From contig DAOWGP010000034.1 of assembly GCA_030637405.1 (NCBI GenBank), positions 1,358 through 65,357 on the forward strand: a DNA stretch of 64,000 bases. Reading direction: 5' to 3'. Below the pieces are notes generated by a model. That model did no database searches. It saw nothing but the letters and a program-made list of their open reading frames with translations, and was not told where the DNA came from. Positions 1 to 58,102 of this stretch are shown here, piece after piece. Position 1 is the stretch's first letter. Every line of letters starts with the position of its first letter. This DNA comes from Candidatus Omnitrophota bacterium. Lineage in GTDB: Bacteria > Omnitrophota > Gorgyraeia > Zapsychrales > Zapsychraceae. A program made the translations under genes and the position numbers.

Positions 1-228
1 TTTACATTTGTAACGACAGTTTCGATCGCCTTCCCAAGACATATGAAGAATGTCACGGATGGGAACACACTTAAAAATCCGCCCATTCTTCGTTTTATGC
101 ATCCCAAAACGTGTCTTGTAAATTGCACAGTAATATTTGCCTTTGCTTGTTTCCAATAAACTATCCCGCAGCAAGCTACAAGGAATTCTTTCGATTAAAT
201 GTTCACAAGGGTCATCTTCAGGAATACC

Positions 229-260
229 GCAGCATGACCCGCAGCATGACCCGCAGCATT
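229..260. repeat. 12-nt tandem repeat gcagcatgaccc, about 2.7 copies
   Basis: Direct reading: gcagcatgaccc at 229-240 and 241-252, partial third copy 253-260. On the minus strand it encodes GHAA-GHAA within a 52-aa small ORF. Confidence 0.8.
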
Positions 261-437
261 GGCATAGCTTTTCCCATTTTTCAAGTCGCATTTCCTGCGA
301 TTGACGATATTTTCCTCTTCAGAATAGTCGGATTTTAAGCCCATATATTTCAACAATTTACAGCAGATTCGTGGTAAAAAATCCGGTTTTACACAAAAAA
401 ACTCTTCTCAGGAAACCTACCCTAAAGAAGAGAAAAT

Positions 438-615
438 AAGCCGATAAAGGAGGATGTCTCCCTCACCGCACTTCGGCAACTCAGCCACCATTTCGCCATC
501 AACCGTTCTTATGTCTTAGGTGCCCAATGCGCCTCTAAGGGCCTTTTAGGTGTCAGACAATTTAGGTCTGTAGTTTTGTGCCCCCAGGTTTCCCTGGGTT
601 TACCTTTATCGGCTT
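438..615. other. Candidate structured RNA or MITE-like element: a perfect 13-bp closing helix enclosing several internal hairpins
   Basis: aagccgataaagg (438-450) is the exact reverse complement of cctttatcggctt (603-615). Internal hairpins include cccagg-tttc-cctggg, cagac-aatttag-gtctg and cttagg...cctaag. The region is non-coding on both strands, downstream of trpF. Confidence 0.35.
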
Positions 616-670
616 ACTGTAAGGATACCATATTTCTCAACGACTTTCAAGGGACTAAAGTCGTTTCCTA

Positions 671-1291
671 TCAAGGGCTTACAAGATTTACAGAATCAAA
701 GAAGCTCCTGATCAAACGTGGATTTTTGATCCCTGGAGACTTTTCCACTCCGCTTGAAACATCGATAGCAAAGGGTTTCGCTGCAGCTAAAGCCTCTTGA
801 ACATTCTGCGGATTTAGGCCTCCAGACAATATAACGGGTTTCTCGATCTTATGTTCTTTAAGAATATCCCAATTAAATACCTTGCCTGTTCCACCAGAAA
901 CTCCCTCTTCATAGGTATCAAACAAGTACGCGTCCACTTTATATTTCTTTATGACATCAACTGGGAAATAATCCCCAATACGAAATGCCTTGATAACCTT
1001 AAAATCCGTAAACCGTTTGCAATAGACGGCTTTTTCCTCTCCATGAAACTGGACCGTACGAATACGGGTAAATTTACAGATGTCCCGGACAGCCCGATCG
1101 GATTGATCAACAAACACGCCAACCGGTGTCACAAAAGGCGGCAAGGCTTCAATGATCTTCCTCACGCGGCTCGGAGAGACATACCTCGGACTTTTTTTAG
1201 AAAAAACAAATCCTAGCGCCCAAGCCCCATAATAAACCGCTTTTAGAGCATCCTCACTGTTCGTTATTCCACACACTTTAACTCTGACCAT
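671..1291 (-). CDS. trpF: Phosphoribosylanthranilate isomerase
   Basis: N-terminal MVRVKVCGIT is the PRAI signature; about 200 aa; sits in a trp gene run. Confidence 0.9.
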   Translation of the reverse strand: MVRVKVCGITNSEDALKAVYYGAWALGFVFSKKSPRYVSPSRVRKIIEALPPFVTPVGVFVDQSDRAVRDICKFTRIRTVQFHGEEKAVYCKRFTDFKVIKAFRIGDYFPVDVIKKYKVDAYLFDTYEEGVSGGTGKVFNWDILKEHKIEKPVILSGGLNPQNVQEALAAAKPFAIDVSSGVEKSPGIKNPRLIRSFFDSVNLVSP

Positions 1292-2073: not shown

Positions 2074-3093
2074 TTAAAATCTTTGTGTAAACTGTTTTAA
2101 TTCGTTAAGTTTATCCAGTGCTTTAGCCGAATCGATCGTCGCCTTGGCCATATCCATCCCTTGCGAAATACTCGTAACTTTTTCTGCGACATAAAGCGCA
2201 TAGGCGGCATTCAAGAGAACAATATCCATCTTTGGCCCGGCTTTACCGATCAATATCTCCTCACAGATACGGACATTTGTCTCTAGACCACCACCTTCTA
2301 GATCGTGCGGTTTCGCGATGCTTATTCCTAGCTCCTCCGGTGAGATGTCGTAGGAAATAACCTCATTCCCGTCATATTCACTGATAAATGTTTTGTCGGT
2401 TATCGTGATCTCGTCTAAACCATCACTGCCATGAACAACCATTGCGCGTTTTAACCCTAAATTTTTAAGCACGTGGGCCATCGGCTCAACGAGATCCCGG
2501 CTATAAACACCCAGAATCTGATGTGTCGCGCGAGCCGGATTTGTCAGCGGTCCCAAAATGTTAAAGATCGTCTCCACGCCAAGCTTTTTCCGGATTGGAG
2601 CCACATTTTTCATCGCTGGATGAAGCTTTTGGGCGAATAAAAAAGCAATTCCAACCTCATCAAGGCAAGCGCTTAAATGCGCTTGCTCAACATTTAAATT
2701 AACTCCGAGGGCCTCCAAAACATCCGCGCTTCCACATTTACTGGAAACCGAACGGTTCCCATGTTTTGCGACAGCAACACCAGCTCCCGCAACAACAAGT
2801 GCGGTTACCGTTGAAATATTGAAAGTGTTTTTCTTATCACCGCCGGTCCCGCATGTATCTAAGACATCTTCGTGCTTTGTTTCAATACCCACTACAAACT
2901 TGCGCATGATCTTGGCCGCTCCGGTAATTTCGTCTACCGTCGGCCCTTTTTCTCTAAGCGCCAGCAAGAAACCTGAAATATCCTCCTCAGGGGATTCACC
3001 CGACATGATCTCATGCATAATTTCTTCGATCTCATTTTGGGTTAAATTTTCCTTTTTTTGCAATTTCTGGATACATGTTTTCATAATAATCAA
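2074..3093 (-). CDS. trpD: Anthranilate phosphoribosyltransferase
   Basis: GTGGDKKNTFNISTV glycine-rich PRPP loop; 339 aa. Confidence 0.9.
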   Translation of the reverse strand: MIIMKTCIQKLQKKENLTQNEIEEIMHEIMSGESPEEDISGFLLALREKGPTVDEITGAAKIMRKFVVGIETKHEDVLDTCGTGGDKKNTFNISTVTALVVAGAGVAVAKHGNRSVSSKCGSADVLEALGVNLNVEQAHLSACLDEVGIAFLFAQKLHPAMKNVAPIRKKLGVETIFNILGPLTNPARATHQILGVYSRDLVEPMAHVLKNLGLKRAMVVHGSDGLDEITITDKTFISEYDGNEVISYDISPEELGISIAKPHDLEGGGLETNVRICEEILIGKAGPKMDIVLLNAAYALYVAEKVTSISQGMDMAKATIDSAKALDKLNELKQFTQRF

Positions 3094-7171: not shown

Positions 7172-8545
7172 TTACATTTTATTGAGATTATCTAAGAACT
7201 CAGCGTTTGTTTTGTACTTTCCAACTTTATCGATCAGCAATTCCATTGCTTCGGCTGAATTGAGATCGTGCACGGCTTTGCGCAAAAGCCAAATGCGCTG
7301 CAAGTCATCTTCCGGAATCAATTTCTCTTCATGGCGCGTATTGGACCGTTTGATGTCGATCGCCGGATAAATCCTTCTCTGGAACAAGTTGCGGTCCAAC
7401 TGCAATTCCATATTACCCGTCCCCTTAAACTCCTCAAAAATAACTTCATCCATACGGCTTCCTGTTTCAATGAGCGATGTCGCGATAACCGTTAAACTGC
7501 CGCCCTCTTCAACAGCGCGCGCCGCGCCGAAAAACCTCTTCGGCTTGTGCAGCGCATTTGAGTCTACTCCACCGGAAAGGATTTTCCCGCTATGCGGAAC
7601 AACCGTGTTATAGGCCCGCGCCAAACGCGTGATACTGTCTAAAAGAATAACAACATCACGTTTATGCTCAACAAGCCGTTTTGCTTTTTCAAGCACCATT
7701 TCAGCGATCTGAACGTGACGCTCGGCCGGCTCATCAAAAGTGGAGGAGATCACCTCTCCCTTGACACTTCGCTGCATGTCCGTGACTTCTTCGGGGCGCT
7801 CATCGATCAATAGAACCATCAGAATAACATCCGGCTGATTCTGCATGATGGAATTAGCGACCTTTTGCATGAGCACCGTCTTGCCGCTATACGGCGGCGC
7901 AACTATCAATGCCCTTTGCCCCTTTCCTAACGGAGTCAGTAAATCCATGATCCGCATGGAAATTTCTTTCGGCCCGGACTCTAAAATGATCCGGTCCTTC
8001 GGATACAACGGCGTTAAATTATCAAAAAAGATCTTTTCTTTGCAGTTTTCCGGATTCTCAAAATTCACCGCCTCCACTTTGAGAAGCGCAAAATATTTCT
8101 CTCCTTCTTTCGGAGGGCGGATGTGACCGCCAACGCTATCGCCGGTCTTCAGATCAAACCGGCGGATCTGTGAAGGGGAAACATAGATATCATCAGGACA
8201 CGGCAGATAATTATAATTCACACTTCTTAAAAAGCCAAATCCTTCTGAGAGGATCTCCAGCGTCCCTTCACCAAACATCAAACCCTGCTTTTCGGCTTGA
8301 GCCTGAAGGATCTTGAAAATAAGATCCTGCTTGCGAATACCGCTTATGCCATTGACCCCCATTCCCTTGGCAAATTTCGACAGCTCGGACACCTTGCTAT
8401 CCTTAAGCTTGGTAATATCCATATAATTTTCTTTGTCGGGCTTGACATCTTTTTTTACAGCAGCCTTTTCCCTGCTTTGCGCTGTCTTTTCCATTGCCTT
8501 GCCCCCTCCGGTTGCTTTACTTTCTTTTATCATAGTTTTTCCCAT
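7172..8545 (-). CDS. rho: Transcription termination factor Rho
   Basis: RNA-binding N-domain, Walker A PPYSGKT, conserved C-terminal ATPase region. It carries a roughly 40-aa basic N-terminal extension; the true start may be the internal Met near 8422. Confidence 0.92.
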
Positions 8546-55934: not shown

Positions 55935-58057
55935 GAATGCTCCTCGATTAATGACTTGATCTCGCGCGCGACTTCATCAGGATGGATATCTTTCATGCAG
56001 GCGTGTGTTAAGATCCGGCACCGTGAGCTGTAACACGGCGCGCACGCCAATTTCTTCTCGAGAACAATAATCTTTTTCGCGGGCGGAATGTGCCGTCGGG
56101 AATCTGTTGGGCCGAAAAAGGCCACTACCGGGACCTGCATGGCTGCGGCAACATGCAAAGGCGCTGAATCCGGGGTCACAAAAACTTTGCACTTCTTTAT
56201 GAGCGCCGCGAGTTGCAGGATATTGGTTTTCCCGACAAAGTTTGCCGGTTTAGACTTTGTCATCGATAAAAAATGCTGGGCCAACGGCTTATCTTTTTCT
56301 ATTCCAGTAATGATAACCCGAATATTCTTCGCCGAAAGCATATCGCAAAGACGAGCCATATATTCAACAGGCCAATTCTTTGTCTGCCATTTTGCCGAAG
56401 CCGCGATATTGATCCCGACAATATCCGGATTATTCCCCAACCACTCCGAGTCCAGCAGCCTTTGGACATACTGCTTATTATCCGGCGAAGGCCAAAGTTC
56501 AAGAAACGCATTACCGTTATAATGAATACCGAGATTCTCAAGAACCTGAAACTGATGGGCAACGGGAGGCATGTCTTTGCGCGTATCTTTCACGGGATGT
56601 GATAAAAGGCTCCCCCACTTTCCATTGTCATACCCGTAACTTTCCCTGCCGAAACTTAAAAAAGAAAGTAAATGGCTCTTGCGGTTATTTTGAAAATCAA
56701 TGACCACGTCAAAACGGTATTTCCTGAGTTTCTTTGAAAGCTTCAACACTCCAAGCCATCCGCGGTCCTTATCCTTAACATCGTAGACAATGATTCCGTC
56801 CAAATAGGGGCAATTGTGCAAAATCCTCATCGACTCTTTCCCAACCAGACAATGGATCCTCGCGCGTGGAAACTTTTTCCGGATAGCCTTTAAAGAGGCC
56901 GTAACTAAAACAACATCCCCCATGGACCCGATTTTAATAACGAGAACGTTCATTGATCTTAAAAGATCTTCATAAACCTTGATCGTACTTGAAGCCATAT
57001 GCTCAAGCGTAAAATTATTCCCGAGCTTTTCTTTCGCGCAAGAAACCAGACGGGTTGCCAAGCCCCGGTCATTGGCAATACGTATAACCGCATTGGCCAT
57101 AGCCTCCGTATCCTTTGGCAAAACAAGCAATCCTGTTTTTTCATCATCAATGATATCAACAACCCCTCCGACTTTTGTCGCGACTACCGGCACGTCCGAT
57201 GCCTGTGCCTCTAAGATCACGCGCCCAAAAGCTTCTTGCGTAACGGTTGATAAGACGAGGATATCTGTCTTTGCTAGAATTTGAGGAATATCCCGCCGGT
57301 TACCGAGGAATTCAACATGGCTTTCAATCCCCAGACGGCGCGCCAGCAGCTCTAAGTCCTGCTTATTCGAAGCCTTTTTAGCCGGCGCATCTCCAACAAT
57401 CAAAATATTGGCATAGGGAACGGTCCGTATTACTTTCGCCATCGCCTTAAGAAAGAATGAATGCCCCTTGAGCACTGTTATCCGTCCTATGATCGCGATC
57501 GTGCATCGAGATTTTCCGCCAAAAGAATCCCTTCGAACTTTGAACTTTTCCAGGTCGACGCTCCTGGGAATACAGCGAATACCGCGCGGTAAAACATTGA
57601 AACGGTCGATCATGTGCCTGCCGATGACCTTGCTAGGAACAATCACCAGCTTTGACCAGCCCATGACTTGGCTAAAAATACGATTCTTGTAATGACCGTG
57701 ACACGTCGTAATAAAAACTGCTTTTGTTTTACGGCAGGCAAAATAGGCGATCCATGCCGGAACACGCGACCGGGCGTGAACAATATCAATTTTCTCCCGA
57801 CGGATAACATCGCGCAAAGCTTTAACATTCTCAAGCATTGTCCACAATGACTTTTTATGGACTGGGAGAGAATAATGGCACGCCCCCAGAGACTCTAGCC
57901 CGGGAACAAGCTCTCCTCCATTAGAAACAACAACGGCCTTGTGACCGTGCTGGACCAAATATTTGGCAAAATCAACCGTGCCGGTCTCAACCCCACCGAC
58001 ATTGAGTTCTGGAATGACCTGTAATATGTTCATAGTAAACCCGTAAGGACAGCACAC
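55931..58057 (-). CDS. Bifunctional fusion: N-terminal GT4 glycosyltransferase + C-terminal GT9 heptosyltransferase
   Basis: Residues 1 to about 365 are GT4-like (GGVETG..., EAFGRVILEAQASDVPVV). From about 366 a GT9 module begins (MNVLVIKIGSMGDVVLVTA). 708 aa. Confidence 0.78.
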   Translation of the reverse strand: MCCPYGFTMNILQVIPELNVGGVETGTVDFAKYLVQHGHKAVVVSNGGELVPGLESLGACHYSLPVHKKSLWTMLENVKALRDVIRREKIDIVHARSRVPAWIAYFACRKTKAVFITTCHGHYKNRIFSQVMGWSKLVIVPSKVIGRHMIDRFNVLPRGIRCIPRSVDLEKFKVRRDSFGGKSRCTIAIIGRITVLKGHSFFLKAMAKVIRTVPYANILIVGDAPAKKASNKQDLELLARRLGIESHVEFLGNRRDIPQILAKTDILVLSTVTQEAFGRVILEAQASDVPVVATKVGGVVDIIDDEKTGLLVLPKDTEAMANAVIRIANDRGLATRLVSCAKEKLGNNFTLEHMASSTIKVYEDLLRSMNVLVIKIGSMGDVVLVTASLKAIRKKFPRARIHCLVGKESMRILHNCPYLDGIIVYDVKDKDRGWLGVLKLSKKLRKYRFDVVIDFQNNRKSHLLSFLSFGRESYGYDNGKWGSLLSHPVKDTRKDMPPVAHQFQVLENLGIHYNGNAFLELWPSPDNKQYVQRLLDSEWLGNNPDIVGINIAASAKWQTKNWPVEYMARLCDMLSAKNIRVIITGIEKDKPLAQHFLSMTKSKPANFVGKTNILQLAALIKKCKVFVTPDSAPLHVAAAMQVPVVAFFGPTDSRRHIPPAKKIIVLEKKLACAPCYSSRCRILTHACMKDIHPDEVAREIKSLIEEHS

Positions 58058-58102
58058 TGTGCTGTCCTTACAAATGATCCGTAACGGCCCGAATTCAATT
58101 GA

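Follow-up and report, generated by a model that had tools for sequence, protein, structure and literature searches.

Among described riboswitches, those most similar to the locus reported here are Vc2 and Vc1 of Vibrio cholerae, which belong to the c-di-GMP-I family (GEMM-I; Rfam RF01051) and are named for their ligand, cyclic di-guanosine monophosphate (c-di-GMP), along with Bc1 of Bacillus thuringiensis. In Vc2, the ligand is contacted by G20, A47 and C92, and a universally conserved C:G pair connects the helices (PMC4744006). Bc1 has a long expression platform with two terminators, the first of which is unfolded by c-di-GMP (PMC11218506). Here we describe a GEMM-I element on the minus strand of a 64,000-nucleotide (nt) stretch of DNA from a Candidatus Omnitrophota bacterium (assembly GCA_030637405.1, contig DAOWGP010000034.1, positions 1,358 to 65,357), hereafter the window, in which the element follows trpF and is spanned by a long perfect inverted repeat. 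We consider it likely, with a probability of roughly 0.75, that the element is a GEMM-I riboswitch and that the helix formed by the inverted repeat is a competing alternative pairing.

The element shares with Vc2 and Vc1 the P1-P2-P3 arrangement, the GAAA tetraloop on P2 with its receptor in P3, the G/A/C ligand contacts and the inter-helix C:G pair, as well as a position in a 5' leader co-directional with the downstream genes. Unlike them, it has a P3 that ends in a conserved extension of 58-75 nt instead of a short loop, combines a very short P1 with a long putative anti-aptamer helix drawn from the extreme 5' end of the transcript, and resides in a Candidatus Omnitrophota host upstream of an open reading frame (ORF) with a cysteine cluster and a 3-deoxy-D-arabino-heptulosonate 7-phosphate (DAHP) synthase, within a trp cluster. 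As in Bc1, two terminator-like structures separated by about 30-40 nt come after the GEMM-I aptamer; the first alone is structurally coupled to it, and the second appears intact in both states (for the window, in modelled folds). The two systems differ in that the ligand should favour the window's first local hairpin, H1, by freeing one of its strands (strand C), and their sequences are unrelated.

A c-di-GMP-I family RNA on the minus strand

An Rfam scan of both strands of the 64-kb window returned a match to RF01051 at 614..472 on the minus strand, with 66.4 bits against a gathering score of 35 (E = 9e-11), and RF01051 was the sole family above its gathering threshold in the whole window. 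The alignment spans the full model (1-87) and agrees with it at all conserved positions. The conserved pieces of GEMM-I are visible by eye, namely AAAG in J1/2, P2 with GAAA, the CUAA...AUG receptor columns of P3 and the 3' UGCCGAA, and homologues of the element score 61.6-66 bits against the same model. A preliminary description of this stretch, made from its letters only, had offered a riboswitch-like leader as one option while leaving the RNA unclassified; the first proposal is borne out by the Rfam scan that the description itself recommended, and the second gives way to a well-known family that standard Rfam annotation finds. The features expected of cis-regulation are also in place, with a promoter, alternative helices, a terminator and same-strand ORFs downstream, and we infer from the aptamer sequence that the ligand is c-di-GMP.

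Related families were compared with the element at the positions that set them apart. In a permissive scan, the c-di-GMP-I-GGC model (RF03167) ranked top by E-value with 58.3 bits, under its gathering score of 59. Both RF03167 and the cyclic AMP-GMP (c-AMP-GMP; GEMM-Ib) sensors share a clan and an overall fold with the element. In our reading of the two consensus lines, 'GGC' refers to positions 20/47/92. The GGC variant was rejected on the A47 position, just past the P2 closing pair: the window carries A577 there, opposite a consensus G of RF03167, and the match line is empty at that point. A match to RF03167 is in any case not diagnostic, since an ordinary Niallia GEMM-I with A at the A47 position also exceeds the threshold of that model. 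A at the G20 position reportedly marks c-AMP-GMP sensors; the element, unlike GEMM-Ib, has an invariant G there (G604), and this assignment was likewise rejected. A resemblance to lysine-riboswitch boxes in the wrong order, remarked on earlier, is spurious, as the Rfam lysine model gave no match at E <= 10 on either strand.

Homologues were collected with a pattern scan for the GEMM-I core together with the insertion block CCUAAAAG, which yielded nine metagenome loci and eight loci in species-representative genomes. Six of these eight genome matches are Candidatus Omnitrophota, and the remaining two are ordinary GEMM-I riboswitches from a Clostridia metagenome-assembled genome (MAG) and from Niallia. 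After removal of duplicates, 13 distinct sequences remained, falling into three lineages (the window's being lineage 1) and coming from Candidatus Omnitrophota MAGs or metagenome contigs. In their alignment (A2), 99.3% of cells in the 33 base pairs of the aptamer helices are paired, and both partners have been exchanged in six pairs, of which three belong to P3a, two to P3b and one, an A:U to G:C change, to P2. Not one among 500 shuffles did as well, and slid controls were paired in 24-47% of cells; with 13 sequences in three lineages, the alignment has limited covariation power, and none for invariant helices. In addition, the 246-nt region folds better than 200 of 200 shuffles (z = -3.3).

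These compensatory changes in P2 and P3 answer the covariation check across relatives that accompanied the preliminary description, and they sort the local hairpins that it listed. One of these, cccagg/cctggg, is P2 of the aptamer and contains the A:U to G:C change. The other two, cagac/gtctg and cttagg/cctaag, do not occur in lineages 2 and 3 and cannot be reconciled with P3d or with the covarying P3a/P3b.

Aptamer architecture and the P3 extension

The aptamer extends over 471..614 on the minus strand, as delimited by the RF01051 alignment and covariation. P1 (612-610 paired with 475-474 and 471) is very short, at 3-4 pairs, and invariant; P2 occupies 604-578, with its GAAA tetraloop at 592-589, and P3 occupies 575-478. 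CUAA (565-562) and AUG fall in the tetraloop-receptor columns of the model, and the tetraloop is predicted to dock there. The predicted ligand contacts G604, A577 and C476 correspond to G20, A47 and C92 of Vc2 and are invariant in the 13 sequences, as is the inter-helix pair, which involves C580 and the bulged GG at 486-485.

The most distinctive part of the aptamer is the P3-tip extension (498..555, minus strand), which places 60 extra nt where RF01051 has a 4-nt loop and which is found in all 13 sequences at lengths of 58-75 nt. It comprises an internal loop, the putative helices ACC/GGU (551-549 with 504-502) and GCCC/GGGC (542-539 with 525-522), and a cap that varies. The block ACCUAAAAGGCCC (551-539) is 100% conserved. 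P3b (560-556 with 497-493), directly under the extension, has two compensatory pairs; ACC/GGU and GCCC/GGGC never vary, and covariation neither supports nor contradicts them. Alternative pairings of the extension, GUCU:AGAC in lineage 1 and UCCAAU:AUUGGA in lineage 2, were not adopted, as they conflict with the covarying P3b. Judging by the Vc2 structure, the extension should sit beyond the tetraloop receptor, a long way from the binding pocket.

Insertions at the P3 tip are not unique to the Omnitrophota clade, because the GEMM-I of the Clostridia MAG (L021) also has one at the same model position, 40 nt long against 60 in the window and unrelated in sequence. The clade-specific part of the extension is instead its conserved sequence, which is common to the three Omnitrophota lineages.

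The long helix as an alternative pairing

A repeat search of the window showed that the arms of the inverted repeat are perfect, as previously described, and extend to 14 nt (437-450 / 603-616), 152 nt apart. Their 13-nt cores are aagccgataaagg at 438-450 and cctttatcggctt at 603-615. Taken alone, the inverted repeat is only mildly unusual: the number of perfect inverted repeats (13 nt or longer, within 300 nt) expected by chance in 64 kb is about 0.3 (64000 x 300 / 4^13), and the window holds three that are non-palindromic. Two other perfect inverted repeats are at 58043-58071 (14 base pairs (bp), 1-nt spacer) and 7290-7302 / 7548-7560 (13 bp, 245 nt apart).

The position of the arms is more informative. 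The 5' arm, element A (603..616, minus strand), consists of the 5' strand of P1 (GCCG, 613-610), J1/2 (AUAAAG, which includes G604) and G603, with which P2 begins. The 3' arm, element C or 'a double prime' (437..450, minus strand; CCUUUAUCGGCUU(A)), starts 21 nt past the last nucleotide of the aptamer and is directly followed by a U-rich run. Because the 5' arm is the P1 strand, J1/2 and the base of P2, the long helix and the binding-competent fold are mutually exclusive. The helix had been portrayed as the closing stem of a multi-stem junction, a role that its exclusion of the binding fold and the location of its 3' arm outside the aptamer do not allow. Judged by sequence, it is instead the putative alternative (anti-aptamer) helix of the expression platform.

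The 3' arm CUUUAUCGGCU is found at the same place in 13 of 13 distinct sequences, across three lineages with otherwise differing platforms, and we put the probability of this 11-mer turning up by chance within 160 nt at about 4e-5 per sequence. This conservation places the inverted repeat beyond chance. Across the 13 sequences, 97.4% of cells in the A:C arms are paired; as the arm was located with a regular expression, the evidence lies in its presence in every sequence and not in that percentage. The 5' arm, being aptamer core, is unable to covary. The A:C duplex has a calculated energy of -20.9 kcal/mol.

The start of transcription is predicted to coincide with the 5' arm. A consensus scan identified a sigma-70-type promoter at 650-622 on the minus strand, with a TTGAAA -35 box (650-645), a 17-nt spacer and an extended -10 box, TGgTATCCT (630-622). 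The layout TTGNNA-17-TGnTATNNT and its distance to GCCGAU are kept in all homologues with upstream sequence, in three lineages, and the start is therefore expected within 1-2 nt of the 5' arm. The transcript probably begins near A615, where the 5' arm starts; the arm would then make up RNA nucleotides 1-13, counted from 615. Immediately past the stop codon of trpF, and overlapping the -35 box of the riboswitch promoter, is a hairpin without a U tract, AACGACUUU...AAAGUCGUU (639-665, minus strand). The trp operon may also read through into the riboswitch.

Expression platform

Three further segments of the minus strand complete the platform in the window: a purine run, element B (CGGUGAGGGAG, 468-458); a pyrimidine run, element D (CUCUUCUUUAGGG, 432-420); and element E (UCCUGAGAAGAG, followed by U7 at 401-395). 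Elements B and C form hairpin H1 (442..468), in which CGGUGAGGGAG (468-458) pairs with CUCCUUUAUCG (452-442) around the loop ACAUC. The 3' strand of H1 overlaps nine nt of the 3' arm, so that H1 and A:C exclude each other. A terminator scan listed H1 as terminator-like, and its energy is -14 to -15 kcal/mol. In the six distinct lineage-1 sequences, 98.5% of H1 cells are paired, with one-sided changes only (G:U/A:U, U:A/U:G). Lineage 3 and the lineage-2 leader L012 have hairpins of other sequence, whose lower stem likewise uses the start of the 3' arm.

Elements D and E form the intrinsic terminator T2 (395..432), in which CUCUUCUU-U-AGGG pairs with UCCU-GAGAAGAG (432-402) ahead of the U7 tract. 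T2 has 12 bp and an energy of -13.7 kcal/mol and is seen in minimum free energy (MFE) folds; the terminator scan did not list it, presumably owing to a bulge in the stem. Its conservation is clear in the six distinct lineage-1 sequences, where 97% of cells are paired, three pairs show compensatory changes and every sequence has a U7-U9 tract. No separate promoter was found between T2 and the downstream small ORF in the consensus scan.

Nearest-neighbour energies put the aptamer with H1 at -42.7 kcal/mol versus -47.8 kcal/mol for A:C with P2/P3, a gap of about 5 kcal/mol. GEMM-I aptamers bind c-di-GMP with nM-pM affinities. Ligand binding could, on these modelled energies, reverse the gap between the two states. 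A connection from this switch to T2 is offered by a pairing between B and D, UGAGGGAGA (465-457) with UCUUCUUUA (431-423), which has 9 bp, three of them G:U, and -11 to -12 kcal/mol. B:D turns up in the MFE fold at intermediate transcript lengths once C is blocked. Neither inspection by eye nor constrained folding revealed a nested antiterminator, and the pseudoknotted B:D is the sole candidate.

Leaders of the homologues vary around this plan. In the lineage-1 contig L014 (~466-560), the aptamer, H1, the 3' arm and D are kept, the 3' half of T2 is absent and the downstream sequence is unrelated; the truncated terminator could be a rearrangement or a product of a chimeric short contig. Several lineage-1 leaders share the blocks AAAACCGG and CGAAUCUGYYGUAA / AUUUAUCGUAA, which in the window lie at ~352-388 (minus strand), past T2 and ahead of the ORF, where no promoter-like site was detected. 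In the lineage-2 leaders (L015 at ~2600-2880, minus strand; L012, L016 and L017), the 3' arm leads directly into a perfectly paired hairpin (~13-17 bp) that lacks a U tract and whose 3' strand, GCGAAUAAAGAAAAGCC, resembles the aptamer's own 5' strand. More hairpins follow, and the last pairs a Shine-Dalgarno-like GGGAGG sequence ahead of a gene for an RsmE-like methyltransferase, which suggests translational rather than termination control in lineage 2.

Direction of control

Our tentative preference, which we rate at somewhat less than an even chance, is that c-di-GMP causes termination and thus acts as an OFF signal. Strand A would either build the binding pocket, through P1, J1/2 and the base of P2, or pair with C (450-438) and destroy it. 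With ligand bound, A would be locked in the aptamer and C would pair with B to form H1; T2 would then form and stop transcription before the Cys-cluster ORF and the DAHP synthase gene. Free of ligand, A would invade H1 from the free GCUU toehold to form A:C, and the released UGAGGGAGA would pair with UCUUCUUUA, the 5' strand of T2, allowing some polymerases to read through. We prefer this OFF model because B, the sole competitor for the 5' strand of T2, is free only when A holds C. The lineage-3 terminator uses another 5' strand, AUCCCUUA, containing CCCUU, which in our reading is complementary to the GAGGG released from the H1 of that lineage; this complementarity would provide mild independent support.

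Several observations weigh against this model and, in part, against the broader interpretation. T2 forms both in the free MFE fold and with the aptamer enforced, so that nested thermodynamics do not explain regulation, and T2 is the MFE structure once E is transcribed. B:D is pseudoknotted with A:C, includes three G:U pairs and has a less favourable energy than T2, and would therefore need to act kinetically; by a geometric estimate, its 6-nt and 4-nt linkers would make the pseudoknot sterically possible. The U-rich run stands directly after the 3' arm in 13 of 13 sequences, and A:C with this run resembles a long-range terminator, which suggests the opposite logic. Finally, lineage 2 lacks any U-tract terminator, and a trp cluster with DAHP synthase is an atypical context for c-di-GMP regulons.

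The opposite logic, an ON switch, would make A:C and the U-run that follows it (CGGC-UUAUUUUCU) an intrinsic terminator that loops out the whole aptamer and stops ligand-free transcripts at ~432-425; c-di-GMP would lock A, H1 would hold C as an antiterminator, and T2 would be a second, largely constitutive terminator. In keeping with this, all 13 sequences, across the three lineages, have CGGCU(U) as the end of the 3' arm and no fewer than five U among the next eight nt. The lineage-2 leaders L015-L017 have neither a local hairpin competing for the 3' arm nor another U-tract terminator, and for this lineage the ON switch is the sole simple termination model. Bc1 supplies a precedent, with two terminators 28 bp apart, the first alone being c-di-GMP-responsive (PMC11218506). 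In the window's lineage, however, H1 is local, with a 5-nt loop, and should form ahead of the long-range helix, and the GCUU toehold would leave the polymerase only after the U-run has been transcribed. Moreover, T2 (12 bp and U7, covarying) would also terminate ligand-bound transcripts, which leaves no expressing state under ON logic in this lineage; no further promoter was found upstream of the small ORF in the consensus scan. We regard the ON switch as rather unlikely. Apart from OFF and ON, the remaining probability belongs to lineage-specific logic, effects on RNA stability or an always-terminated transcript. The last of these would be a stand-alone c-di-GMP-binding small RNA of ~190-220 nt, ended at the U-run or at T2 and acting as a sponge or in trans. 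T2 is a strong, conserved terminator present in both modelled states, which speaks for such an RNA; against it, lineage 2 lacks such a terminator, the interval between T2 and the ORF contains no promoter-like site, the placement just ahead of co-directional genes, in the same orientation, is kept in all lineages, and the reading is purely inferential. We consider it improbable.

Two further explanations concern the nature of the element itself. A GEMM-I-derived aptamer could recognize another ligand, such as a different cyclic dinucleotide or an aromatic amino-acid metabolite, with the P3 extension contributing to recognition. In all lineages, the RNA does lie in an aromatic-amino-acid cluster (after trpC-trpF, before DAHP synthase, or near trpB), it is not next to motility, adhesion or GGDEF/EAL genes, and the ACCUAAAAGGCCC block is fully conserved. 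Yet no departure from the canonical state is seen at the three contact positions or in the inter-helix C:G pair, all of which are invariant, and the extension is presumably remote from the pocket. The directly downstream gene also varies by lineage (Cys-cluster ORF, RsmE-like gene or zinc-ribbon-like ORF), and the trp context may therefore be inherited synteny only; we find an altered ligand very improbable. The suggestion that the element is related to miniature inverted-repeat transposable elements (MITEs), or is an incidental inverted repeat devoid of RNA function, draws on the perfect 14-nt terminal inverted repeat around ~150 nt. A blastn search with 380-660 against the window returned only the query itself and its own arms, and neither this search nor the Rfam scan detected a second copy within the 64 kb. 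The strong Rfam match, the covarying RNA helices, the identity of one arm with the functional core of the aptamer, and the retention of the same synteny, promoter and terminator in relatives whose neighbouring small protein is 54-65% identical (BLASTP) all speak against a mobile or incidental origin, which we consider scarcely credible. The MITE option of the preliminary description is accordingly set aside, since the window has a single copy and relatives keep the element, with a promoter of its own, at the same syntenic position.

Genomic context and significance

The element lies just 3' of trpF (671-1291, minus strand), in agreement with the initial placement next to the end of that gene, and the region was also correctly described as non-coding, with no ORF of substance on either strand. 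The TrpF encoded in the window is identical to MCK5014629.1 from a Candidatus Omnitrophica MAG. Along the riboswitch strand, the order is trpG-trpD-trpC-trpF, riboswitch, small Cys-cluster ORF and AroF/G/H-type DAHP synthase, the last of which is just past the window edge; beyond the left edge of the window, the locus was read from contigs of the same species. The small ORF (1..344, minus strand) has its body from the ATG at 291 and continues past the window, with a full length of 103 amino acids (aa) in contig L001. It has no Pfam match, and its NCBIfam matches, to the YcgN family, are weak (E about 0.01).

An indexed search found three homologues of the small protein, with 54-65% identity (BLASTP). 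Two are encoded after trpF, and the third is on a 709-nt contig without room upstream; wherever upstream sequence is present, the same riboswitch stands between trpF and the small ORF. The order downstream of the riboswitch is Cys-cluster ORF and DAHP synthase in lineage 1, and RsmE-like methyltransferase and DAHP synthase in lineage 2. In lineage 3, the riboswitch is followed by a 107-aa ORF without a Pfam match, an M20 peptidase and a farther ORF. We read the paired Cys motifs of the 107-aa ORF as suggestive of a zinc ribbon, and the N terminus of the farther ORF, in our reading, looks like that of tryptophan synthase beta. A crude regular-expression scan found no GGDEF, EAL or HD-GYP motifs in the long ORFs of the window.

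The element points to riboswitch-based c-di-GMP signalling in Candidatus Omnitrophota, an uncultured phylum, and the clade shares a conserved P3 extension. A full-text literature search on riboswitches and c-di-GMP in Omnitrophica, taken together, found no relevant paper. A DAHP synthase in the regulated unit, within a trp cluster, would be an unusual c-di-GMP target. The leader is also a clear candidate example of an anti-aptamer helix drawn from the very 5' end of a transcript, and would suit studies of co-transcriptional strand displacement. More speculatively, the Omnitrophota sequences may form a GEMM-I subclass of their own, marked by the invariant P3 extension (ACCUAAAAGGCCC...GGGCA...GGU) and located within the aromatic-amino-acid cluster, that directly gates DAHP synthase, and with it entry into the shikimate pathway, in response to c-di-GMP, or that has altered ligand specificity; we think this distinctly unlikely at present.

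Some minor features of the downstream ORFs were also recorded. One relative (contig L007) has an extra ORF of 167 aa (1437-1940), without a Pfam match, between the riboswitch terminator and the Cys-cluster ORF. In the window, an N-terminal remnant of the Cys-cluster ORF (ATG at 344, MGLKSDYSEEEN...) is out of frame with the body (ATG at 291, MRLEKWEKLC...) over 289-344 on the minus strand, whereas the homologues P0001, P0002 and L013 each have one continuous ORF. The window's species is apparently one A short in GAGGAAAAUAU, as are the covering contigs of the same species (L001 and L003-L005), and the frame break could be a real frameshift, an internal start or a systematic assembly error. Within the body of the ORF, a 12-nt tandem repeat, TGCTGCGGGTCA, is present in ~2.6 copies (227-258, minus strand) and encodes CCGS repeats. 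Contig L001 has an assembly gap at this repeat, and L003 and L004 match the window except for one 12-nt gap, presumed to lie in the repeat, that keeps the reading frame.

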